Assembly (NCBI RefSeq): GCF_054482525.1
Contig: NZ_CM137006.1
Length of the DNA stretch: 64,000 nucleotides
Direction: 5' to 3' (one strand)
Within the stretch, counting starts at the first letter, position 1. Each line of letters starts with the position of its first letter. The notes beneath the pieces are model-generated. The model made no database searches. It had not been told where the DNA came from and saw only the letters and a program-made list of their open reading frames with translations. Below are positions 1-58,329 of this stretch, piece after piece. Position numbers and translations under genes: made by a program.

Positions 1-664
1 TAATTAATAAATGCCCATCGTTCTCAAACGAAATCCATCCCTGATCGAATAGAATATCAATATGCGCAGCCAATATAATTCCATTAAAAGGATCAAGCCG
101 TTCATTCCCATTCTCGCAGGCAGCCCACGGCTTTATATGGCTGGTACGCAGTAAAGGTGCAAACGTCGTTCCCGTAACAGGACATGCCGGATACAACATA
201 AGACAATTTTTCCGAAAGGTACCTTGCCCCAGCCGTGCCGCAATCAGCTGCTCGCGTACGGTATCTTCAATACTTTTATCCTGCTGAATAGCAAGACAGT
301 CACGTTGTGCCTGTTCATCTCCAGCAGAAGATATTAACGAAAGAACGCGCTGCTCAATCGCACTGTCTGAAAGCACACTCATTCGCTGATACACACGCTG
401 CGCTGAATGAGAAAGCGCAGCAGGAGCGCCCTGCTCGTCAAGCCAGCCGACACGCACATCACTAAGCCAGGAATCAAAACGGTCACGACTATTTTTCAGA
501 CTATTGTGAAACTCGCTGGCAGTTTTGCCCGCTCCAAATCGAGGATAAAACAAGGCAAAAGCCTCTTTCCATTTCTGAACACCCAGTCCTGCGGGTGGTT
601 GAGATTTTCCGTACTTCGACAAATACCACGCCACTTCAAGCAAATCGTCTTCAGAGCTATTCAA
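1..664 (-). CDS. HNH-nuclease-like protein, 3'-partial (C-terminus lies beyond the window start); start codon unresolved
   Basis: Minus-strand frame is open from 691 down to position 1 with no stop. Translation ends ...LYPACPVTGTTFAPLLRTSHIKPWAACENGNERLDPFNGIILAAHIDILFDQGWISFENDGHLLI, a His-Me finger / HNH-type pattern. First ATG is at 382; possible TTG/GTG starts at 664, 643, 634. Absent from the ORF track because it runs off the window. Confidence 0.5.
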   Translation of the reverse strand, partial: MNSSEDDLLEVAWYLSKYGKSQPPAGLGVQKWKEAFALFYPRFGAGKTASEFHNSLKNSRDRFDSWLSDVRVGWLDEQGAPAALSHSAQRVYQRMSVLSDSAIEQRVLSLISSAGDEQAQRDCLAIQQDKSIEDTVREQLIAARLGQGTFRKNCLMLYPACPVTGTTFAPLLRTSHIKPWAACENGNERLDPFNGIILAAHIDILFDQGWISFENDGHLLI

Positions 665-964
665 TATTACGTCCTGTTTTTGCAGAGTAAATTATCACCA
701 GATTATATCTGAAAAGATCGTTTACTAAACTGATCTGCTTACCTGCAAAACGGTACTGCAAACGCTAATACTCAGAACCATTAAGAGGAACAAGCAGGTG
801 CATTCCGCTGCCATCGGTCAGTTTGTATTGCTTATCCCCTGCCTCTAGGTACAAGCATTTTCGAAACGGAAATACCATTATCTGTTGGTAGATGTACGTT
901 GAAGTTGGTTCACCTGGAGAGAGTTAATATAGCGGGAAAGGTAGGTAAATACTGGATTTCAGGT

Positions 965-990
965 ATAAAAAAAGACCTCAGTTGAGGTCT
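965..990 (-). terminator. rho-independent terminator downstream of leuX
   Basis: Inverted repeat agacctca/gttgaggtct followed on the minus strand by a T-run (plus-strand A7). Confidence 0.6.
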
Positions 991-1003
991 ATTTACATAC
1001 TTT

Positions 1004-1088
1004 TGGTGCCGAAGGCCGGACTCGAACCGGCACGTATTTCTACGGTTGATTTTGAATCAACTGCGTCTACCGATTTCGCCACTTCGGC
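1004..1088 (-). tRNA. leuX: tRNA-Leu (anticodon CAA)
   Basis: 85-nt reverse complement reads GCCGAAGTGGCGAAATCGGTAGACGCAGTTGATTCAAAATCAACCGTAGAAATACGTGCCGGTTCGAGTCCGGCCTTCGGCACCA, with CAA anticodon and encoded CCA end. Confidence 0.96.
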
Positions 1089-24217: not shown

Positions 24218-24613
24218 ATGGAAGAAAGAACCGCTGTTTTCCCTGCTGGCCGACATTCACTGTATGCTGAGCATCGTTATTCTGCGGCTATTCGTTCCGG
24301 CGATTTGCTGTTTGTTTCCGGGCAAGTAGGAAGTCGAGAGGACGGAACACCAGAACCCGATTTTCAGCAACAAGTCAGACTGGCCTTTGATAATTTGCAT
24401 GCGACCCTGGCTGCTGCGGGATGCACTTTTGACGATATCATTGATGTTACGAGCTTTCATACCGATCCAGAAAAACAATTTGAAGACATCATGACGGTGA
24501 AAAATGAAATATTTAGCGCCCCACCTTATCCAAACTGGACGGCGGTGGGTGTTACCTGGCTGGCAGGCTTTGATTTTGAAATTAAAGTGATAGCGCGCAT
24601 CCCTGAGCTATAA
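24218..24613 (+). CDS. yjgH: RidA/YjgF-family protein
   Basis: 131 aa. Confidence 0.85.
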   Translation: MEERTAVFPAGRHSLYAEHRYSAAIRSGDLLFVSGQVGSREDGTPEPDFQQQVRLAFDNLHATLAAAGCTFDDIIDVTSFHTDPEKQFEDIMTVKNEIFSAPPYPNWTAVGVTWLAGFDFEIKVIARIPEL

Positions 24614-24862
24614 GCAATAGTGTTAGCCGTTCGTTTTCACCCTCCGCCCTATAAGTCGGATGAATGGAATAAAATGCATATCTGATTGCGTGAAAATGAA
24701 AAAGAAAAAAGCAGGAAATGTCTGCAATTATTGATACCGAACGACACTTCCCCTCCAAAATCATAGAAAATAAAAATGCATATACTTTGACTTTTAATTC
24801 AAATAAACCGTTTGCGCTGACAAAATATTGCATCAAATGCTTGCACCGCTTCTGGCTATGAG

Positions 24863-24868
24863 TATAAT
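24863..24868 (+). promoter_or_regulatory. pyrBI promoter -10 hexamer (TATAAT)
   Basis: tataat about 25 nt upstream of the pyrL ATG, followed by the AATTTG initially transcribed region. Confidence 0.5.
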
Positions 24869-24893
24869 GCCGGACAATTTGCCGGGAGGATGT

Positions 24894-25028
24894 ATGGTTC
24901 AGTGTGTTCGACATTTTGTCTTACCGCGTCTGAAAAAAGACGCTGGCCTGCCGTTTTTCTTCCCGTTGATCACCCATTCCCAGCCCCTCAATCGAGGGGC
25001 TTTTTTTTGCCCAGGCGTCAGGAGATAA
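24894..25028 (+). CDS. pyrL: pyrBI operon leader peptide
   Basis: MVQCVRHFVLPRLKKDAGLPFFFPLITHSQPLNRGAFFCPGVRR (44 aa), embedded in ORF 24828..25028. Confidence 0.9.
   Translation: MVQCVRHFVLPRLKKDAGLPFFFPLITHSQPLNRGAFFCPGVRR
24983..25008 (+). terminator. pyrBI attenuator (intrinsic terminator within the leader)
   Basis: Hairpin gcccctc-aatc-gaggggc immediately followed by T8, inside the pyrL coding region. Confidence 0.85.
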
Positions 25029-25031
25029 AAG

Positions 25032-25967
25032 ATGGCTAATCCGCTATATCAGAAACATATCATTTCCATAAACGACCTTAGTCGCGATGACCTTAATCTG
25101 GTGCTGGCGACAGCGGCGAAACTGAAAGCAAACCCGCAACCAGAGCTGTTGAAGCACAAAGTCATTGCCAGCTGTTTCTTCGAAGCCTCTACCCGTACCC
25201 GCCTCTCTTTCGAAACTTCCATGCACCGCCTGGGTGCCAGCGTGGTGGGCTTCTCCGACAGCGCCAATACATCACTGGGTAAAAAAGGCGAAACGCTGGC
25301 CGATACCATTTCGGTTATCAGCACTTACGTCGATGCGATAGTGATGCGTCATCCGCAGGAAGGTGCGGCGCGCCTGGCCACCGAGTTTTCCGGCAATGTA
25401 CCGGTACTGAATGCCGGTGATGGCTCCAACCAACATCCGACGCAAACCTTGCTGGACTTATTCACCATTCAGGAAACCCAGGGGCGTCTGGACAATCTCC
25501 ACGTCGCAATGGTTGGTGACCTGAAATATGGCCGCACCGTTCACTCCCTGACTCAGGCGTTAGCGAAGTTCGACGGCAACCGTTTTTACTTCATCGCGCC
25601 GGACGCGCTGGCAATGCCGCAATACATCCTTGATATGCTCGATGAAAAAGGGATCGCCTGGAGTCTGCACAGCTCTATTGAAGAAGTGATGGCGGAAGTA
25701 GACATCCTGTACATGACTCGCGTGCAAAAAGAGCGTCTGGACCCGTCCGAGTACGCCAACGTGAAAGCGCAGTTTGTTCTTCGCGCCAGCGATCTCCACA
25801 ACGCCAAAGCCAATATGAAAGTGCTGCATCCGCTGCCGCGTGTTGATGAGATTGCCACCGATGTTGATAAAACGCCGCACGCCTGGTACTTCCAGCAGGC
25901 AGGCAACGGGATTTTCGCTCGCCAGGCGTTACTGGCACTGGTTCTGAATCGCGATCTGGTACTGTAA
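25032..25967 (+). CDS. pyrB: aspartate carbamoyltransferase catalytic subunit
   Basis: 311 aa; STRTR and HPLP motifs. Confidence 0.97.
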
Positions 25968-25979
25968 GGGGAAATAGAG

Positions 25980-26441
25980 ATGACACACGATAATAAATTG
26001 CAGGTTGAAGCTATTAAACGCGGCACGGTAATTGACCATATCCCCGCCCAGATCGGTTTTAAGCTGTTGAGTTTGTTCAAGCTGACCGAAACGGATCAGC
26101 GCATCACCATTGGTCTGAACCTGCCTTCTGGCGAGATGGGCCGCAAAGATCTGATCAAAATCGAAAATACCTTTTTGAGTGAAGATCAGGTAGATCAACT
26201 GGCATTGTATGCGCCGCAAGCCACGGTAAATCGTATCGACAACTATGAAGTGGTTGGCAAATCGCGCCCCAGTCTGCCGGAGCGCATCGACAATGTGCTG
26301 GTCTGCCCGAACAGCAACTGTATCAGCCATGCCGAACCGGTTTCATCCAGCTTTGCCGTGCGAAAACGCGCCAATGATATCGCGCTCAAATGCAAATACT
26401 GTGAAAAAGAGTTTTCCCATAATGTGGTGCTGGCCAATTAA
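25980..26441 (+). CDS. pyrI: aspartate carbamoyltransferase regulatory subunit
   Basis: 153 aa; C-terminal zinc-binding cysteines (CPNSNCISH ... CKYCE). Confidence 0.97.
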
Positions 26442-29802: not shown

Positions 29803-30062
29803 AAGGAGTCCCTCCGCACTGTCTGAAACAGTACAGAAATGTCTTCAGGCGTGGCGAAGCCTTACCTGAAGGTAATAAAGCTGAGCTGGGACGTTAAAAC
29901 GTCACGGCCTTACGCATCCGGTAACGCCGTGAAAAGACGGGCTTACCGGAAAAGTTTTAATCTCCGTCGAGGGAGAGGCGTGGGATCAGGTTCCATATAA
30001 CCTCCGGTAAGTGAAAAAAGCGCCGCAAATAATAAGGAGAATCCAATAATATTCGTAGCATC
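29803..30062 (-). promoter_or_regulatory. mgtA 5' leader (Mg2+- and proline-sensing attenuator region)
   Basis: About 260-nt untranslated leader between the putative -10 (30072..30077) and the mgtA start; contains mgtL. Confidence 0.65.
29943..29996 (-). CDS. mgtL: mgtA leader peptide (proline-rich)
   Basis: [17 protein letters not shown] (17 aa) = last 17 codons of the 113-aa ORF-track entry 29943..30284. Confidence 0.8.
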
Positions 30063-30108: not shown

Positions 30109-30180
30109 ACTTTACCCATTGCTGAATGCACGGGTAAAGTTAGGCTCAAATAATTAAACAACACGTTACGGGACAACAGG

Positions 30181-31128
30181 ATGCAAAATCGGCTGACCAT
30201 CAAAGACATCGCGCGCTTAAGCGGCGTGGGGAAATCTACGGTTTCCCGGGTGCTGAATAACGAAAGCGGCGTGAGCCAGCGCACGCGCGAGCGTGTTGAA
30301 GCAGTGATGAATCAGCATGGATTTTCCCCTTCCCGCTCTGCGCGCGCTATGCGTGGGCAAAGCGATAAAGTGGTCGCCATCATTGTGACCCGTCTGGATT
30401 CGTTGTCAGAAAATCTCGCCGTTCAAACCATGCTGCCAGCGTTCTATGAACAAGGTTACGATCCAATCATGATGGAAAGTCAGTTTTCCCCACAATTAGT
30501 TGCCGAACATTTGGGGGTGCTGAAACGGCGTAATATCGACGGCGTAGTGCTGTTCGGTTTTACCGGCATAACAGAAGAAATGATAGCCCACTGGCAGTCA
30601 TCGCTGGTTCTGCTGGCGCGTGACGCAAAAGGCTTTGCTTCGGTCTGTTATGACGACGAAGGGGCAATCAAGATCCTGATGCAACGGCTGTATGACCAGG
30701 GGCATCGTAATATCAGTTATCTCGGCGTGCCGCATAGTGACGTGACGACCGGTAAGCGACGTCACGAAGCCTACCTGGCGTTCTGCAAAGCGCATAAACT
30801 GCATCCCGTTGCCGCTCTGCCAGGCCTTGCTATGAAGCAAGGCTATGAGAACGTAGCAAAAGTGATTACGCCTGAAACTACCGCGTTACTGTGCGCAACC
30901 GACACGCTGGCACTTGGTGCAAGTAAATACCTGCAAGAGCAACGCATCGACACCTTGCAACTGGCGAGCGTCGGTAATACACCGTTAATGAAATTCCTCC
31001 ATCCGGAGATCGTCACCGTAGATCCCGGTTACGCCGAAGCTGGACGCCAGGCGGCCTGCCAGTTGATCGCGCAGGTAACCGGGCGCAGCGAACCGCAACA
31101 AATCATCATCCCCGCCACCCTGTCCTGA
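30181..31128 (+). CDS. treR: trehalose operon repressor (LacI family)
   Basis: 315 aa; HTH LTIKDIARLSGVGKSTVSRVLN. Confidence 0.95.
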   Translation: MQNRLTIKDIARLSGVGKSTVSRVLNNESGVSQRTRERVEAVMNQHGFSPSRSARAMRGQSDKVVAIIVTRLDSLSENLAVQTMLPAFYEQGYDPIMMESQFSPQLVAEHLGVLKRRNIDGVVLFGFTGITEEMIAHWQSSLVLLARDAKGFASVCYDDEGAIKILMQRLYDQGHRNISYLGVPHSDVTTGKRRHEAYLAFCKAHKLHPVAALPGLAMKQGYENVAKVITPETTALLCATDTLALGASKYLQEQRIDTLQLASVGNTPLMKFLHPEIVTVDPGYAEAGRQAACQLIAQVTGRSEPQQIIIPATLS

Positions 31129-37527: not shown

Positions 37528-37818
37528 TCACTCATCCAGCCGTTTAGTCGCGTCTTCATAAACGGCTGAGTTCTCTCTCTTACCAATAGCTATCACCAAC
37601 ACGAGCAACTCTTTATCGTTAACCTGATAAACCAGGCGATATCCCTGTGTGCGCAGCTTAATTTTGTAGCAGTCCGGTAAATCCCGCAGTTTAGCCGATG
37701 GATTGCGCGGCCTTTTCAGCACATCCTCAAGCTTTTTTTTAAATTGTTCCCGGACTGTCACGCCCAGTTTTTGCCACTCTTTCAGCGCCCGCGGATCAAA
37801 CGCCAGCTCATAGTTCAT
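37528..37818 (-). CDS. RelE/StbE-family type II toxin (mRNA interferase)
   Basis: 96 aa from MNYELAFDPRALKEWQKLG...; closely resembles K-12 RelE (MAYFLDFDERALKEWRKLG...DCYKIKLRSSGYRLVYQV...). The ORF-track entry 37528..37896 over-extends the N-terminus. Confidence 0.8.
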   Translation of the reverse strand: MNYELAFDPRALKEWQKLGVTVREQFKKKLEDVLKRPRNPSAKLRDLPDCYKIKLRTQGYRLVYQVNDKELLVLVIAIGKRENSAVYEDATKRLDE

Positions 37819-38050
37819 CCAGTCGGACCTTAATGGCCTCTTGTGGGTTGGCCAGTCGTTCCCTGACAGTGCGTAACAAGGCTTCTTCACTATCACTGAC
37901 AGTGAGCGTTTTTACCGGCATTCGTCCATTTTCCGCAACGTACTGAAACAGCAGTCGCACTGCTTCAGTAGGCGTGATATTTAATTTTTCCAGCACCGCA
38001 TAAGCCTCATTTTTCAGTTTGTCATCCAGGCGGACGTTAAGTGTGGCCAT
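37808..38050 (-). CDS. RelB/DinJ-family antitoxin
   Basis: 80 aa MATLNVRLDDKLKNEAYAVLEKL... resembling RelB; overlaps the toxin start by 11 nt; GGAGGC RBS upstream. Confidence 0.8.
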   Translation of the reverse strand: MATLNVRLDDKLKNEAYAVLEKLNITPTEAVRLLFQYVAENGRMPVKTLTVSDSEEALLRTVRERLANPQEAIKVRLDEL

Positions 38051-40834: not shown

Positions 40835-41630
<796 letters not shown>

Positions 41631-41734
41631 ATCAGCATACTTGTCCTTAGCCTTCTGCAGTGACAGCTGGTAGTACAGCGTGCTTCTGGCCAGCCCTGCA
41701 GCCTTTAACAGGTCAGACTGGCAGTGTCCGCACC

Positions 41735-42265
41735 TCAGGCTCCGGATGACTTTCGTTTTTTCTCCAGCTCCTGGCGCTTTTTTTCCAGGAGATGCTCCTG
41801 CATGGCTTTCAGATATGCATTTTCTGCGCGAAGATAACGCAGCTCATTCTTCATCTCTTCCGGCGTCATGTTTGCCTCGTTTTCATGGGTATCATCAGAA
41901 CGGGTCATGCTTTTCTCCTTCCTGCGCCTGATAAAGGCCTCATTACCAGATTTGCGGTAGCCTTTTATCCAGTTTTTAACCGTGTTGTGGCTGGGAATGT
42001 TAAACCGGGCAGCTACCCGGGGTAGAGACTCAGAATGCCCGAGAGCATAAAGAACCACGCAAAGTTTATCTTCAGGAGAATAGCTACGCTTGTGTCTGCA
42101 ATCCAGTGCCCGAGGACCGTGAAGAAGAAAAAGATTAATCCAGTGTGAGAGGCTGGTGTGAGAAAGTTGAAAGAGTTTTGCCGTAGAAATGATGCCTGCA
42201 TGACCAGCCAGGTAGTGATTTACAGCGGCAAGTTTTACTTCAAATGAATGTTTCATAAACTGCAC
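41735..42265 (-). CDS. IS3-family transposase OrfA (HTH DNA-binding protein)
   Basis: 176 aa with HTH and C-terminal leucine-zipper-like region (LRYLRAENAYLKAMQEHLLEKKRQELEKKRK). Confidence 0.8.
   Translation of the reverse strand: MQFMKHSFEVKLAAVNHYLAGHAGIISTAKLFQLSHTSLSHWINLFLLHGPRALDCRHKRSYSPEDKLCVVLYALGHSESLPRVAARFNIPSHNTVKNWIKGYRKSGNEAFIRRRKEKSMTRSDDTHENEANMTPEEMKNELRYLRAENAYLKAMQEHLLEKKRQELEKKRKSSGA
41777..41785 (-). other. programmed -1 ribosomal frameshift site (A AAA AAG) joining OrfA to OrfB
   Basis: Minus-strand gaaaaaaag heptad near the orfA C-terminus; orfB frame is -1 relative to orfA. Confidence 0.55.
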
Positions 42266-48518: not shown

Positions 48519-48600
48519 CGCCAGATAAGACACAACAGCGTCGCATCAGGCATCTCGCACAACCGCCGGATGCGGCGTGAATGCCTTATCCGGCGGCCCA
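48519..48600. repeat. REP/BIME palindromic units between ytfR and ytfQ
   Basis: gccagataagacacaacagcgtcgcatcaggc and ccgccggatgcggcgtgaatgccttatccggcgg. Confidence 0.6.
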
Positions 48601-58152: not shown

Positions 58153-58329
58153 AGTTTTTCATTTATCAGCAGTCTGAATTTTAACCCTCTGGCGGCTTTA
58201 CAGTACCTTACGCTATACTAGCCACTGAAAATGCCGGTTCACTTTCTTCGAATCGGCTTTCAATGTGTATTTCACACAAATTAATCAACTTCCCCTTCCG
58301 AGGATCTGGCCTGAAAGGTCGGATAAGAT

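Follow-up and report, generated by a model that had tools for sequence, protein, structure and literature searches.

The attenuator in the leader of the E. coli K-12 pyrBI operon was reportedly described by Turnbough, Hicks and Donahue in 1983 and by Roland, Liu and Turnbough in 1988. A minor upstream promoter, P1, also appears in the older pyrBI literature. The leader is a historic model of regulation without a repressor. Its leader peptide gene, pyrL, is still a standard template for studies of transcription-translation coupling (PMC10135430, PMC5021804). At the pyrBI start site, the nascent AAUUU transcript slips at the sequence AATTTG, and at high UTP AAUUUUn transcripts are released in which n reaches >30 or >100, depending on the paper (PMC7039003, PMC6524683, PMC12709180). 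This reiterative transcription lowers productive initiation ~7-fold (PMC7039003, PMC6524683). The promoter is also stringent, being sensitive to ppGpp (PMC6245113, PMC6524683). Further downstream, RNA polymerase pauses on U-rich template under limiting UTP (PMC10135430), and a coupled ribosome blocked termination on pyrL at 5 μM UTP in an in vitro reconstitution (PMC10135430). The pyrL hairpin cuts expression of a downstream reporter ~18-fold in vivo, and a ribosome stalled upstream of the hairpin gives more termination (PMC5021804). That the terminator lies inside the 135-bp leader gene has also been noted (PMC4824070). The details of pausing are unsettled in published work; one study placed a pyrL pause ~24 nt 5' of the classical one and saw no dependence on NusA or the predicted hairpin (PMC9291695).

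The locus studied here lies on the plus strand of a 64,000-nt stretch of DNA, which we call the window. It is the E. coli pyrBI promoter-leader region, canonical, intact, and already known. Direct alignment showed 100% identity with K-12 MG1655 from the -10 box (24863) through to beyond the pyrB ATG, and all 15 substitutions relative to K-12 MG1655 were upstream of the -10 box. Positions 24614-25100 (487 nt) had matches in 5,424 of 5,426 complete E. coli genomes, with 100% identity in three strains, among them PCN033. The annotations under these genome matches read "pyrL: pyr operon leader peptide" and "pyrB." In RefSeq, the K-12 gene order yjgH, pyrL (b4246), pyrB, pyrI, ridA, mgtA is that of the window, and the PCN033 annotation likewise has pyrL followed by pyrB, pyrI, and ridA. 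The upstream neighbors in E. coli are yjgH-bdcA-bdcR. Downstream of the leader are pyrB (25032-25967, plus strand), which encodes the aspartate carbamoyltransferase catalytic chain (Pfam OTCace_N, 164 bits; OTCace, 106 bits), and pyrI (25980-26441, plus strand), which encodes the regulatory chain (PyrI, 107 bits; PyrI_C, 67.5 bits). In the wider window, the identity with PCN033 (4740742-4803905) is 99.8-99.99% over positions 873-64000. Positions 1-1000 find their PCN033 match ~49 kb further on, and the strain therefore lacks the PCN033 island adjoining tRNA-Leu.

With PyrL as the query, a protein search yielded 65 homologues, each of which belongs to PF08052. The named sources were mainly Escherichia, Salmonella, Citrobacter, Kosakonia, Pluralibacter, Phytobacter, and Intestinirhabdus, and two short partial records carry the name Pseudomonas. 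We picked 10 orthologous leaders from other Enterobacteriaceae among these homologues and aligned them with the window leader (n = 11). Invariant or nearly so in the 11 leaders are TATAAT, GGAGG, an upstream hairpin GCGTCTG...GACGC, GCCGTTTTTCTTYCCGTT, and the terminator stem. The leaders are too similar for analysis by covariation, with RNAalifold finding a compensatory change in 1 of 45 predicted pairs and a covariation term of +0.67, and so per-sequence folds were used to compare structures.

It is close to certain that this promoter-leader region adjusts the production of aspartate carbamoyltransferase to the UTP level by two mechanisms, neither of which requires a repressor protein. We determined directly the sequence anatomy, the fold, the identity with K-12, and the conservation of layout across genera; for UTP dependence, pausing, and ribosome-mediated antitermination we rely on experiments published for the K-12 leader, which has the identical sequence. 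At the sequence level, the locus combines the features of a pyrBI attenuator, namely a PF08052 ORF with a Shine-Dalgarno sequence, a terminator overlapped by that ORF, a U-rich stretch, and adjacent pyrB-pyrI genes.

The pyrBI promoter has a -10 hexamer, TATAAT (24863-24868), that can be read directly as a perfect consensus match and is present in 11/11 leaders. The hexamer TTGCAC (24841-24846) precedes the -10 box by 16 nt and on the basis of this spacing is the probable -35 element. It agrees with TTGACA at only three of six positions, and the leader alignment showed the -35 region to be unconserved across genera. A consensus promoter scan of the region gave no σ70 match because the -35 hexamer is weak; the promoter was assigned from the perfect TATAAT, the K-12 identity, and the literature. 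Three of the 15 differences from K-12 fall in the -35 hexamer or the spacer (TTGCAC in the window versus TTGCGC in K-12, and GGCTATGAG versus GACGATGAG), given which promoter strength could differ slightly from that in K-12. The GC-rich discriminator GCCGGAC (24869-24875), directly after the -10 box, is consistent with the reported ppGpp sensitivity of the promoter.

The sequence AATTTG (24876-24881), 7 nt after TATAAT, equals the published pyrBI initially transcribed region (PMC7039003, PMC6524683) and would comprise the transcription start and the site of UTP-sensitive reiterative transcription. Transcription would be expected to start at the first A (24876) and to yield AAUUUUn ladders at high UTP, as in the identical K-12 sequence. 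The arrangement associated with reiterative initiation, that is, at least three T residues on the non-template strand directly after the start, was found here with a -10-to-start distance of 7 nt. Conservation is strict at this site, with ACAATTTGCC invariant in 11/11 leaders and always located 7 nt past the -10 box. The interval appears to hold a second UTP sensor, reiterative transcription at AATTTG, besides the attenuator.

The pyrL gene (24894-25028; 135 nt, stop codon TAA at 25026-25028) encodes the 44-residue leader peptide MVQCVRHFVLPRLKKDAGLPFFFPLITHSQPLNRGAFFCPGVRR. This peptide matched Pfam PF08052 (PyrBI_leader) over residues 1-44 of 44 with a score of 117.1 bits against a cut-off of 25, and RefSeq places the same 135-nt, 44-amino acid pyrL at the equivalent position in PCN033 and K-12. 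The Shine-Dalgarno sequence GGAGG (24885-24889), read directly, is 4 nt before the ATG and is found in 11/11 orthologs. At the other end of the gene, the pyrL stop codon falls between the pyrB Shine-Dalgarno sequence AGGAG (25020-25024) and the pyrB ATG (25032-25034), both of which were read directly; GTCAGGAG, just 5' of the pyrB start codon, is invariant in the orthologs.

Three competing ORFs were considered. The ORF list contains a 66-codon ORF that runs from TTG 24828 to 25028, of which only residues 23-66 match the Pfam family. Its TTG precedes the -10 box by 35 nt and the published start site (24876; PMC7039003) by 48 nt and is therefore not on the mRNA, so that the longer ORF is an artifact. 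The preliminary description had treated this ORF as an over-extension of pyrL, with which we agree. The interval that it gave, 24830-25030, does correspond to the 66-codon ORF but is offset by a trivial 2 nt from the actual coordinates, 24828-25028. It made no mention of the pyrBI promoter and the reiterative-transcription site inside the same interval. The second candidate, a 49-codon out-of-frame ORF from ATG 24890, was rejected: it has no Pfam match, its ATG touches the Shine-Dalgarno sequence with zero spacing, and that ATG is missing from 7 of the 10 other leaders. An antisense ORF of 110 codons (24582-24914, minus strand) was taken as spurious, being unannotated in RefSeq and crossing the promoter.

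The attenuator, an intrinsic terminator, is the hairpin AGCCCCUC-AAUC-GAGGGGCU (24982-25001), which occupies pyrL codons 30-36. Direct reading gave the arms as gcccctc (24983-24989) and gaggggc (24994-25000) around the loop aatc (24990-24993); one added A-U pair makes this GC-rich stem 8 bp in length (24982-25001). Codon Q30 begins at 24981, and the 3' arm ends in codon A36. The T8 tract (25001-25008; U8 in the RNA), likewise read directly, encodes F37-F38 of PyrL. It ends 23 nt before the pyrB ATG (25032) and would be the release site of an attenuated transcript of ~130 nt. When positions 24975-25012 were folded as RNA, exactly this hairpin was obtained, with an energy of -15.9 kcal/mol and 80% of the ensemble, followed by U8. 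None of 200 dinucleotide shuffles was equally stable (shuffle mean -7.0 ± 2.2; z = -4.13), and the hairpin is also contained in the fold of the full leader. The preliminary description had placed the same letters, hairpin and T8, inside pyrL and had recognized in them the textbook layout of UTP-sensitive attenuation. Both points hold, and the second is borne out by the 100% identity with K-12 of the stretch that begins at the -10 hexamer and includes the pyrB start, by the stable fold with its U8 tract, by the PF08052 match, and by the RefSeq annotation pyrL-pyrB-pyrI.

A consensus terminator scan recognized the attenuator as a terminator-like site with eight pairs, six of them GC. The scan of the region returned two sites against 1.1 expected, a count that is not in itself significant, and the other match (24711-24725; five pairs) is of chance-level strength. 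The attenuator is the sole strong terminator-like site within 24400-25300. A further scan, over the two strands of the whole 64-kb window, looked for hairpins directly followed by a run of at least six T. The attenuator ranked third among 33 sites and is the only strong site with T8, and its 20-mer occurs once in the window. The two stronger sites are found directly beyond the 3' ends annotated for valS and ytfP, unlike the attenuator, which is on the 5' side of a gene and within a mini-ORF. Direct reading of the minus strand revealed no T-run after the hairpin; a bidirectional terminator was rejected on this ground, and the attenuator is a one-way terminator.

Because yjgH is on the same strand and lies 370 nt before the hairpin, the latter might be read as a plain terminator that insulates yjgH, with the small ORF as an untranslated chance ORF. 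We consider this extremely improbable. A perfect TATAAT and a conserved start region intervene between yjgH and the hairpin, the small ORF has a strong match to PF08052, and its start codon and Shine-Dalgarno sequence are invariant, unlike the out-of-frame ATG 24890. Moreover, the gene upstream of the leader varies by genus, being an argR-like gene, tabA, or yjgH, and the hairpin, Shine-Dalgarno sequence, and ORF are jointly conserved beside pyrB where an argR-like gene or tabA replaces yjgH. As the upstream neighbor changes and the leader stays with pyrB, the element belongs to pyrB.

Between the pyrL start and the attenuator are two further elements. The upstream hairpin CCGCGUCU-GAAAAA-AGACGC(U)GG (24924-24946; pyrL codons 11-18) was found in both the minimum free energy and the centroid folds of the leader. 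All orthologs retain it, with changes limited to U-A to U-G. It probably corresponds to what pyrBI papers call the "pause hairpin"; PMC10135430 refers to a hairpin pause. Next comes the U/C-rich tract GCCGUUUUUCUUCCCGUUG (24950-24968; codons L19-L25, including FFF), which equals the K-12 sequence and is almost invariant in the 11 orthologs. This tract is a candidate pause site at UTP scarcity, and slowing of RNA polymerase in the U-rich tract when UTP is scarce has been reported (PMC10135430, PMC3641672). The mechanism depends on this tract no less than on the attenuator hairpin.

The three consecutive Phe codons in this tract (24954-24962), with two more in the T8 tract, raise the question of an attenuator of the trp/phe type, in which ribosome stalling at FFF would lead to an antiterminator and the leader would sense charged tRNA-Phe and not UTP. 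In Rfam, a weak match to Trp_leader points in the same direction but, at 19.7 bits, falls far short of the gathering score of 41. Such a mechanism has next to no likelihood in our estimation. In the whole-leader folds, nothing competes for the 5' arm of the terminator and no antiterminator is predicted. Stalling of a ribosome upstream raises termination, which is the opposite of the trp logic (PMC5021804). The genes under control, pyrB and pyrI, make pyrimidines and not phenylalanine, and the U-rich pause tract brings the Phe codons with it as a by-product. For UTP-sensitive attenuation, no alternative antiterminator RNA appears to be involved, and the ribosome itself would act as the antiterminator (PMC10135430, PMC5021804); no structure competing for the terminator 5' arm was present in the minimum free energy, centroid, or alignment-consensus folds.

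On the basis of the identical K-12 sequence, the two UTP-dependent steps would operate as follows. At high UTP, RNA polymerase would slip on the three T residues of AATTTG and AAUUUUn transcripts would be released, and at low UTP normal elongation from the AATTTG start would prevail. Polymerases that escape would transcribe the 156-nt leader while a ribosome initiates on pyrL (24894). At low UTP, polymerase would dwell in the U-rich tract (24950-24968), so that the ribosome could catch up and trail closely. A close ribosome would cover the emerging 5' arm (24982-24989), leaving the terminator unfolded and permitting read-through into pyrB and pyrI. At high UTP, polymerase would not wait, the ribosome would lag, and the hairpin with U8 would form; the transcript would then end ~130 nt from its start and 23 nt before pyrB. 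A rise in read-through on falling UTP is thus expected by analogy with the identical K-12 sequence.

The comparison across the Enterobacteriaceae fits this scheme. Per-sequence folds gave a terminator hairpin in every one of the 11 leaders, with energies from -10.7 to -16.8 kcal/mol, and the T-run after the hairpin varied between 7 and 9 T across orthologs. The stem differs in three leaders. In Pluralibacter a C-G pair is exchanged for U-A in compensatory fashion, in C. koseri an A-to-G change at the stem base preserves pairing, and in one C. portucalensis genome a 1-nt deletion weakens the stem. PyrL ranges in length from 33 to 48 residues and is unconserved past about codon 25. Proteins of 33-34 residues, with a TGA inside the hairpin, are found in S. 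bongori, S. enterica subsp. salamae, C. amalonaticus, and Kosakonia; the remaining leaders encode PyrL of 43-48 residues with the stop codon ~25-35 nt beyond the hairpin. Translation reaches the hairpin in all 11 leaders, and the overlap of ORF and terminator is kept in 11/11. Judged from these sequences, what is conserved is the reach of translation into the hairpin and not the C terminus of the peptide, as is predicted by a mechanism in which the ribosome is the physical antiterminator. The comparison between genera indicates that the RNA and DNA signals and the translation reach are under selection and that the C-terminal peptide sequence is not.

The folds also predict pairing between the segment 24883-24898, which holds the ribosome-binding site and the start codon of pyrL, and the U/C-rich tract (24950-24965). 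This closing helix is present in the minimum-energy fold of 10 of the 11 leaders. In a stepwise fold of the window leader, the helix became stable only once polymerase had passed ~24978, with the energy changing from -22 to -31 kcal/mol and the probability that the AUG is paired from ~0.3 to 0.99. The folding model raises the possibility that the helix is a third, kinetic layer of control, although we think this unlikely. Were it so, dwelling of polymerase in the U-tract at low UTP would keep the pyrL start open for ribosome loading, and fast polymerase at high UTP would close the start, exclude late ribosomes, and reinforce termination. Both segments are conserved for other reasons, one as the Shine-Dalgarno sequence and the other as the pause tract with its Phe codons, and any CU-rich run is inherently anti-Shine-Dalgarno-like. 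Covariation analysis found no compensatory change in this helix among the 11 leaders.

A search of Rfam at gathering scores returned no match in 24600-25100, and neither Trp_leader nor any related amino acid leader family reached threshold. No PyrR binding site was found in 24600-25100 even at E-values up to 10, nor at the gathering score in the whole window. Permissive matches, several of them driven by the terminator, were rejected as chance; these included Chlorobi-1 (24.5 bits versus a gathering score of 50) and GcvB (24.2 versus 42) in addition to Trp_leader (19.7 versus 41). No curated Rfam family exists for the pyrBI leader, which is covered by Pfam, RefSeq, and published work. A hairpin and a U-tail, the usual shape bound by Hfq, form the end of the attenuated transcript, which also has sub-threshold similarity to the small RNAs GcvB (24.2 bits), Hrs1, and STnc100; these features would suit a terminated ~130-nt leader RNA that doubles as a trans-acting small regulatory RNA. 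We consider this additional role very unlikely, since these scores are well under the gathering thresholds, several of the matches span little beyond the terminator, and no trans role is reported in PMC5021804, PMC9291695, or PMC10135430.

The closest known system to the locus is the K-12 pyrBI leader itself (pyrL, b4246), which has the same 44-residue peptide, hairpin, U8, U-rich tract, and AATTTG start region. The pyrBI leader is the founding example of its class and not merely a relative. The leaders of Salmonella, C. amalonaticus, and Kosakonia share with it the promoter core, AATTTG, the Shine-Dalgarno sequence, both hairpins, the U-rich tract, and the distance to pyrB, and have a T8-9 tract. 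In these leaders the loop AATC is replaced by AATTG or TATTG, which creates a TGA within the hairpin. Their PyrL consequently ends inside the terminator, whereas that of the window ends 25 nt past the hairpin.

At the start site, the pyrBI promoter, itself the founding example, shares with the other UTP-sensitive reiterative promoters, codBA, upp-uraA, and carAB P1, a run of at least three T residues that follows the start closely on the non-template strand; codBA and upp exert the effect via start-site switching (PMC12709180). The attenuator has its counterparts in trpL, hisL, pheL, leuL, and thrL, where likewise a short translated leader ORF precedes an intrinsic terminator and coupling decides read-through. 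The signal in pyrBI is the speed of RNA polymerase, set by UTP, whereas in the amino acid leaders it is ribosome stalling. In contrast to those leaders, pyrBI has no antiterminator hairpin, the ribosome itself blocking a terminator that is within the ORF. Here a close ribosome leads to read-through and a stalled ribosome to termination.

The pyrBI promoter of the window differs from that of K-12 by three substitutions in the -35/spacer region (24841-24857). The -35 element reads TTGCAC in the window and TTGCGC in K-12, and the spacer reads GGCTATGAG and GACGATGAG, respectively. Only 706 of the 5,424 matching complete E. coli genomes have at least 99% identity to the whole 487-nt region (24614-25100), which argues, at the level of sequence comparison, that the -35/spacer sequence of the window is one among several natural pyrBI promoter alleles.

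Within the leader, folding predicted a long-range helix in which the Shine-Dalgarno sequence and initiation codon of pyrL (24883-24898) pair with the U/C-rich pause tract (24950-24965). Of the 11 orthologous leaders (the window's own and 10 from other Enterobacteriaceae), 10 had the helix in their minimum free energy fold. In stepwise folding of the window's leader it was predicted to form only once the polymerase is beyond about 24978. No covariation was found for this helix among the 11 leaders.

Comparing fetched loci L004, L006, L007, and L009-L012 with L003, L008, and the window shows that the gene 5' of pyrL varies by genus. The E. coli order upstream is tabA-bdcR-bdcA-yjgH-pyrL. Citrobacter, Salmonella, Kosakonia, and Pluralibacter carry an argR-like repressor upstream of pyrL; E. 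albertii and Phytobacter have a DUF386 (TabA-like) gene there. A variant pyrL of 43 amino acids was observed in a single genome, that of Citrobacter portucalensis (locus L012, 555-747). The terminator of this variant has a 1-nt deletion in its 5' arm and a T-run of just T7, and its hairpin is weakened in the predicted fold, to -10.7 kcal/mol. Either a regulatory mutation or an error in sequencing could account for the variant.

At the start of the window (1-1088), a tRNA on the minus strand (1007-1088; Rfam tRNA, annotated as tRNA-Leu in PCN033) directly abuts an HNH-endonuclease region. In PCN033 this region lies ∼48.8 kb from the tRNA-Leu, on the far side of an integrase-bearing island, and the sequence of window 873-1000 is found at both ends of that island, resembling an att repeat. 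The direct junction and the duplicated sequence together indicate that the strain of the window lacks the PCN033 island.

An 18-nt tandem repeat (21150-21435; 15.9 copies, 90% matching) is located within a minus-strand open reading frame (20119-21990) and encodes hexapeptide repeats of the form LN[ND][SH]Q[KGDE]. The product, annotated solely as hypothetical, has 623 amino acids in the window and 635 in PCN033; the copy number of the repeat may differ between strains.

Coordinate correspondence with the PCN033 annotation placed two further features: between mpl and yjgA, an IS3-family element (IS1397; about 40908-42256), and between cybC and nrdG, a RelB/RelE toxin-antitoxin pair (about 37528-38050). 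By the same correspondence, four Rfam matches above the gathering score lie inside the pepA coding region (Ysr276, 12103-12297, minus), between cpdB and cysQ (ES239, 62840-62962, minus), between paeA and msrA (STnc450, 58211-58268, plus), and between ytfQ and ytfR (naRNA4, 48519-48595, minus). For treR (30178-31128), the record of the near-identical PCN033 gives a pseudogene annotation ("missing N-terminus"), which may reflect either a true defect or an annotation artefact.

A Magnesium riboswitch on the minus strand (29896-30011; Rfam RF01056, 125.8 bits) lies with the mgtL leader peptide 5' of mgtA. This arrangement is a second leader-peptide attenuator, ∼5 kb from pyrL and unrelated to it.
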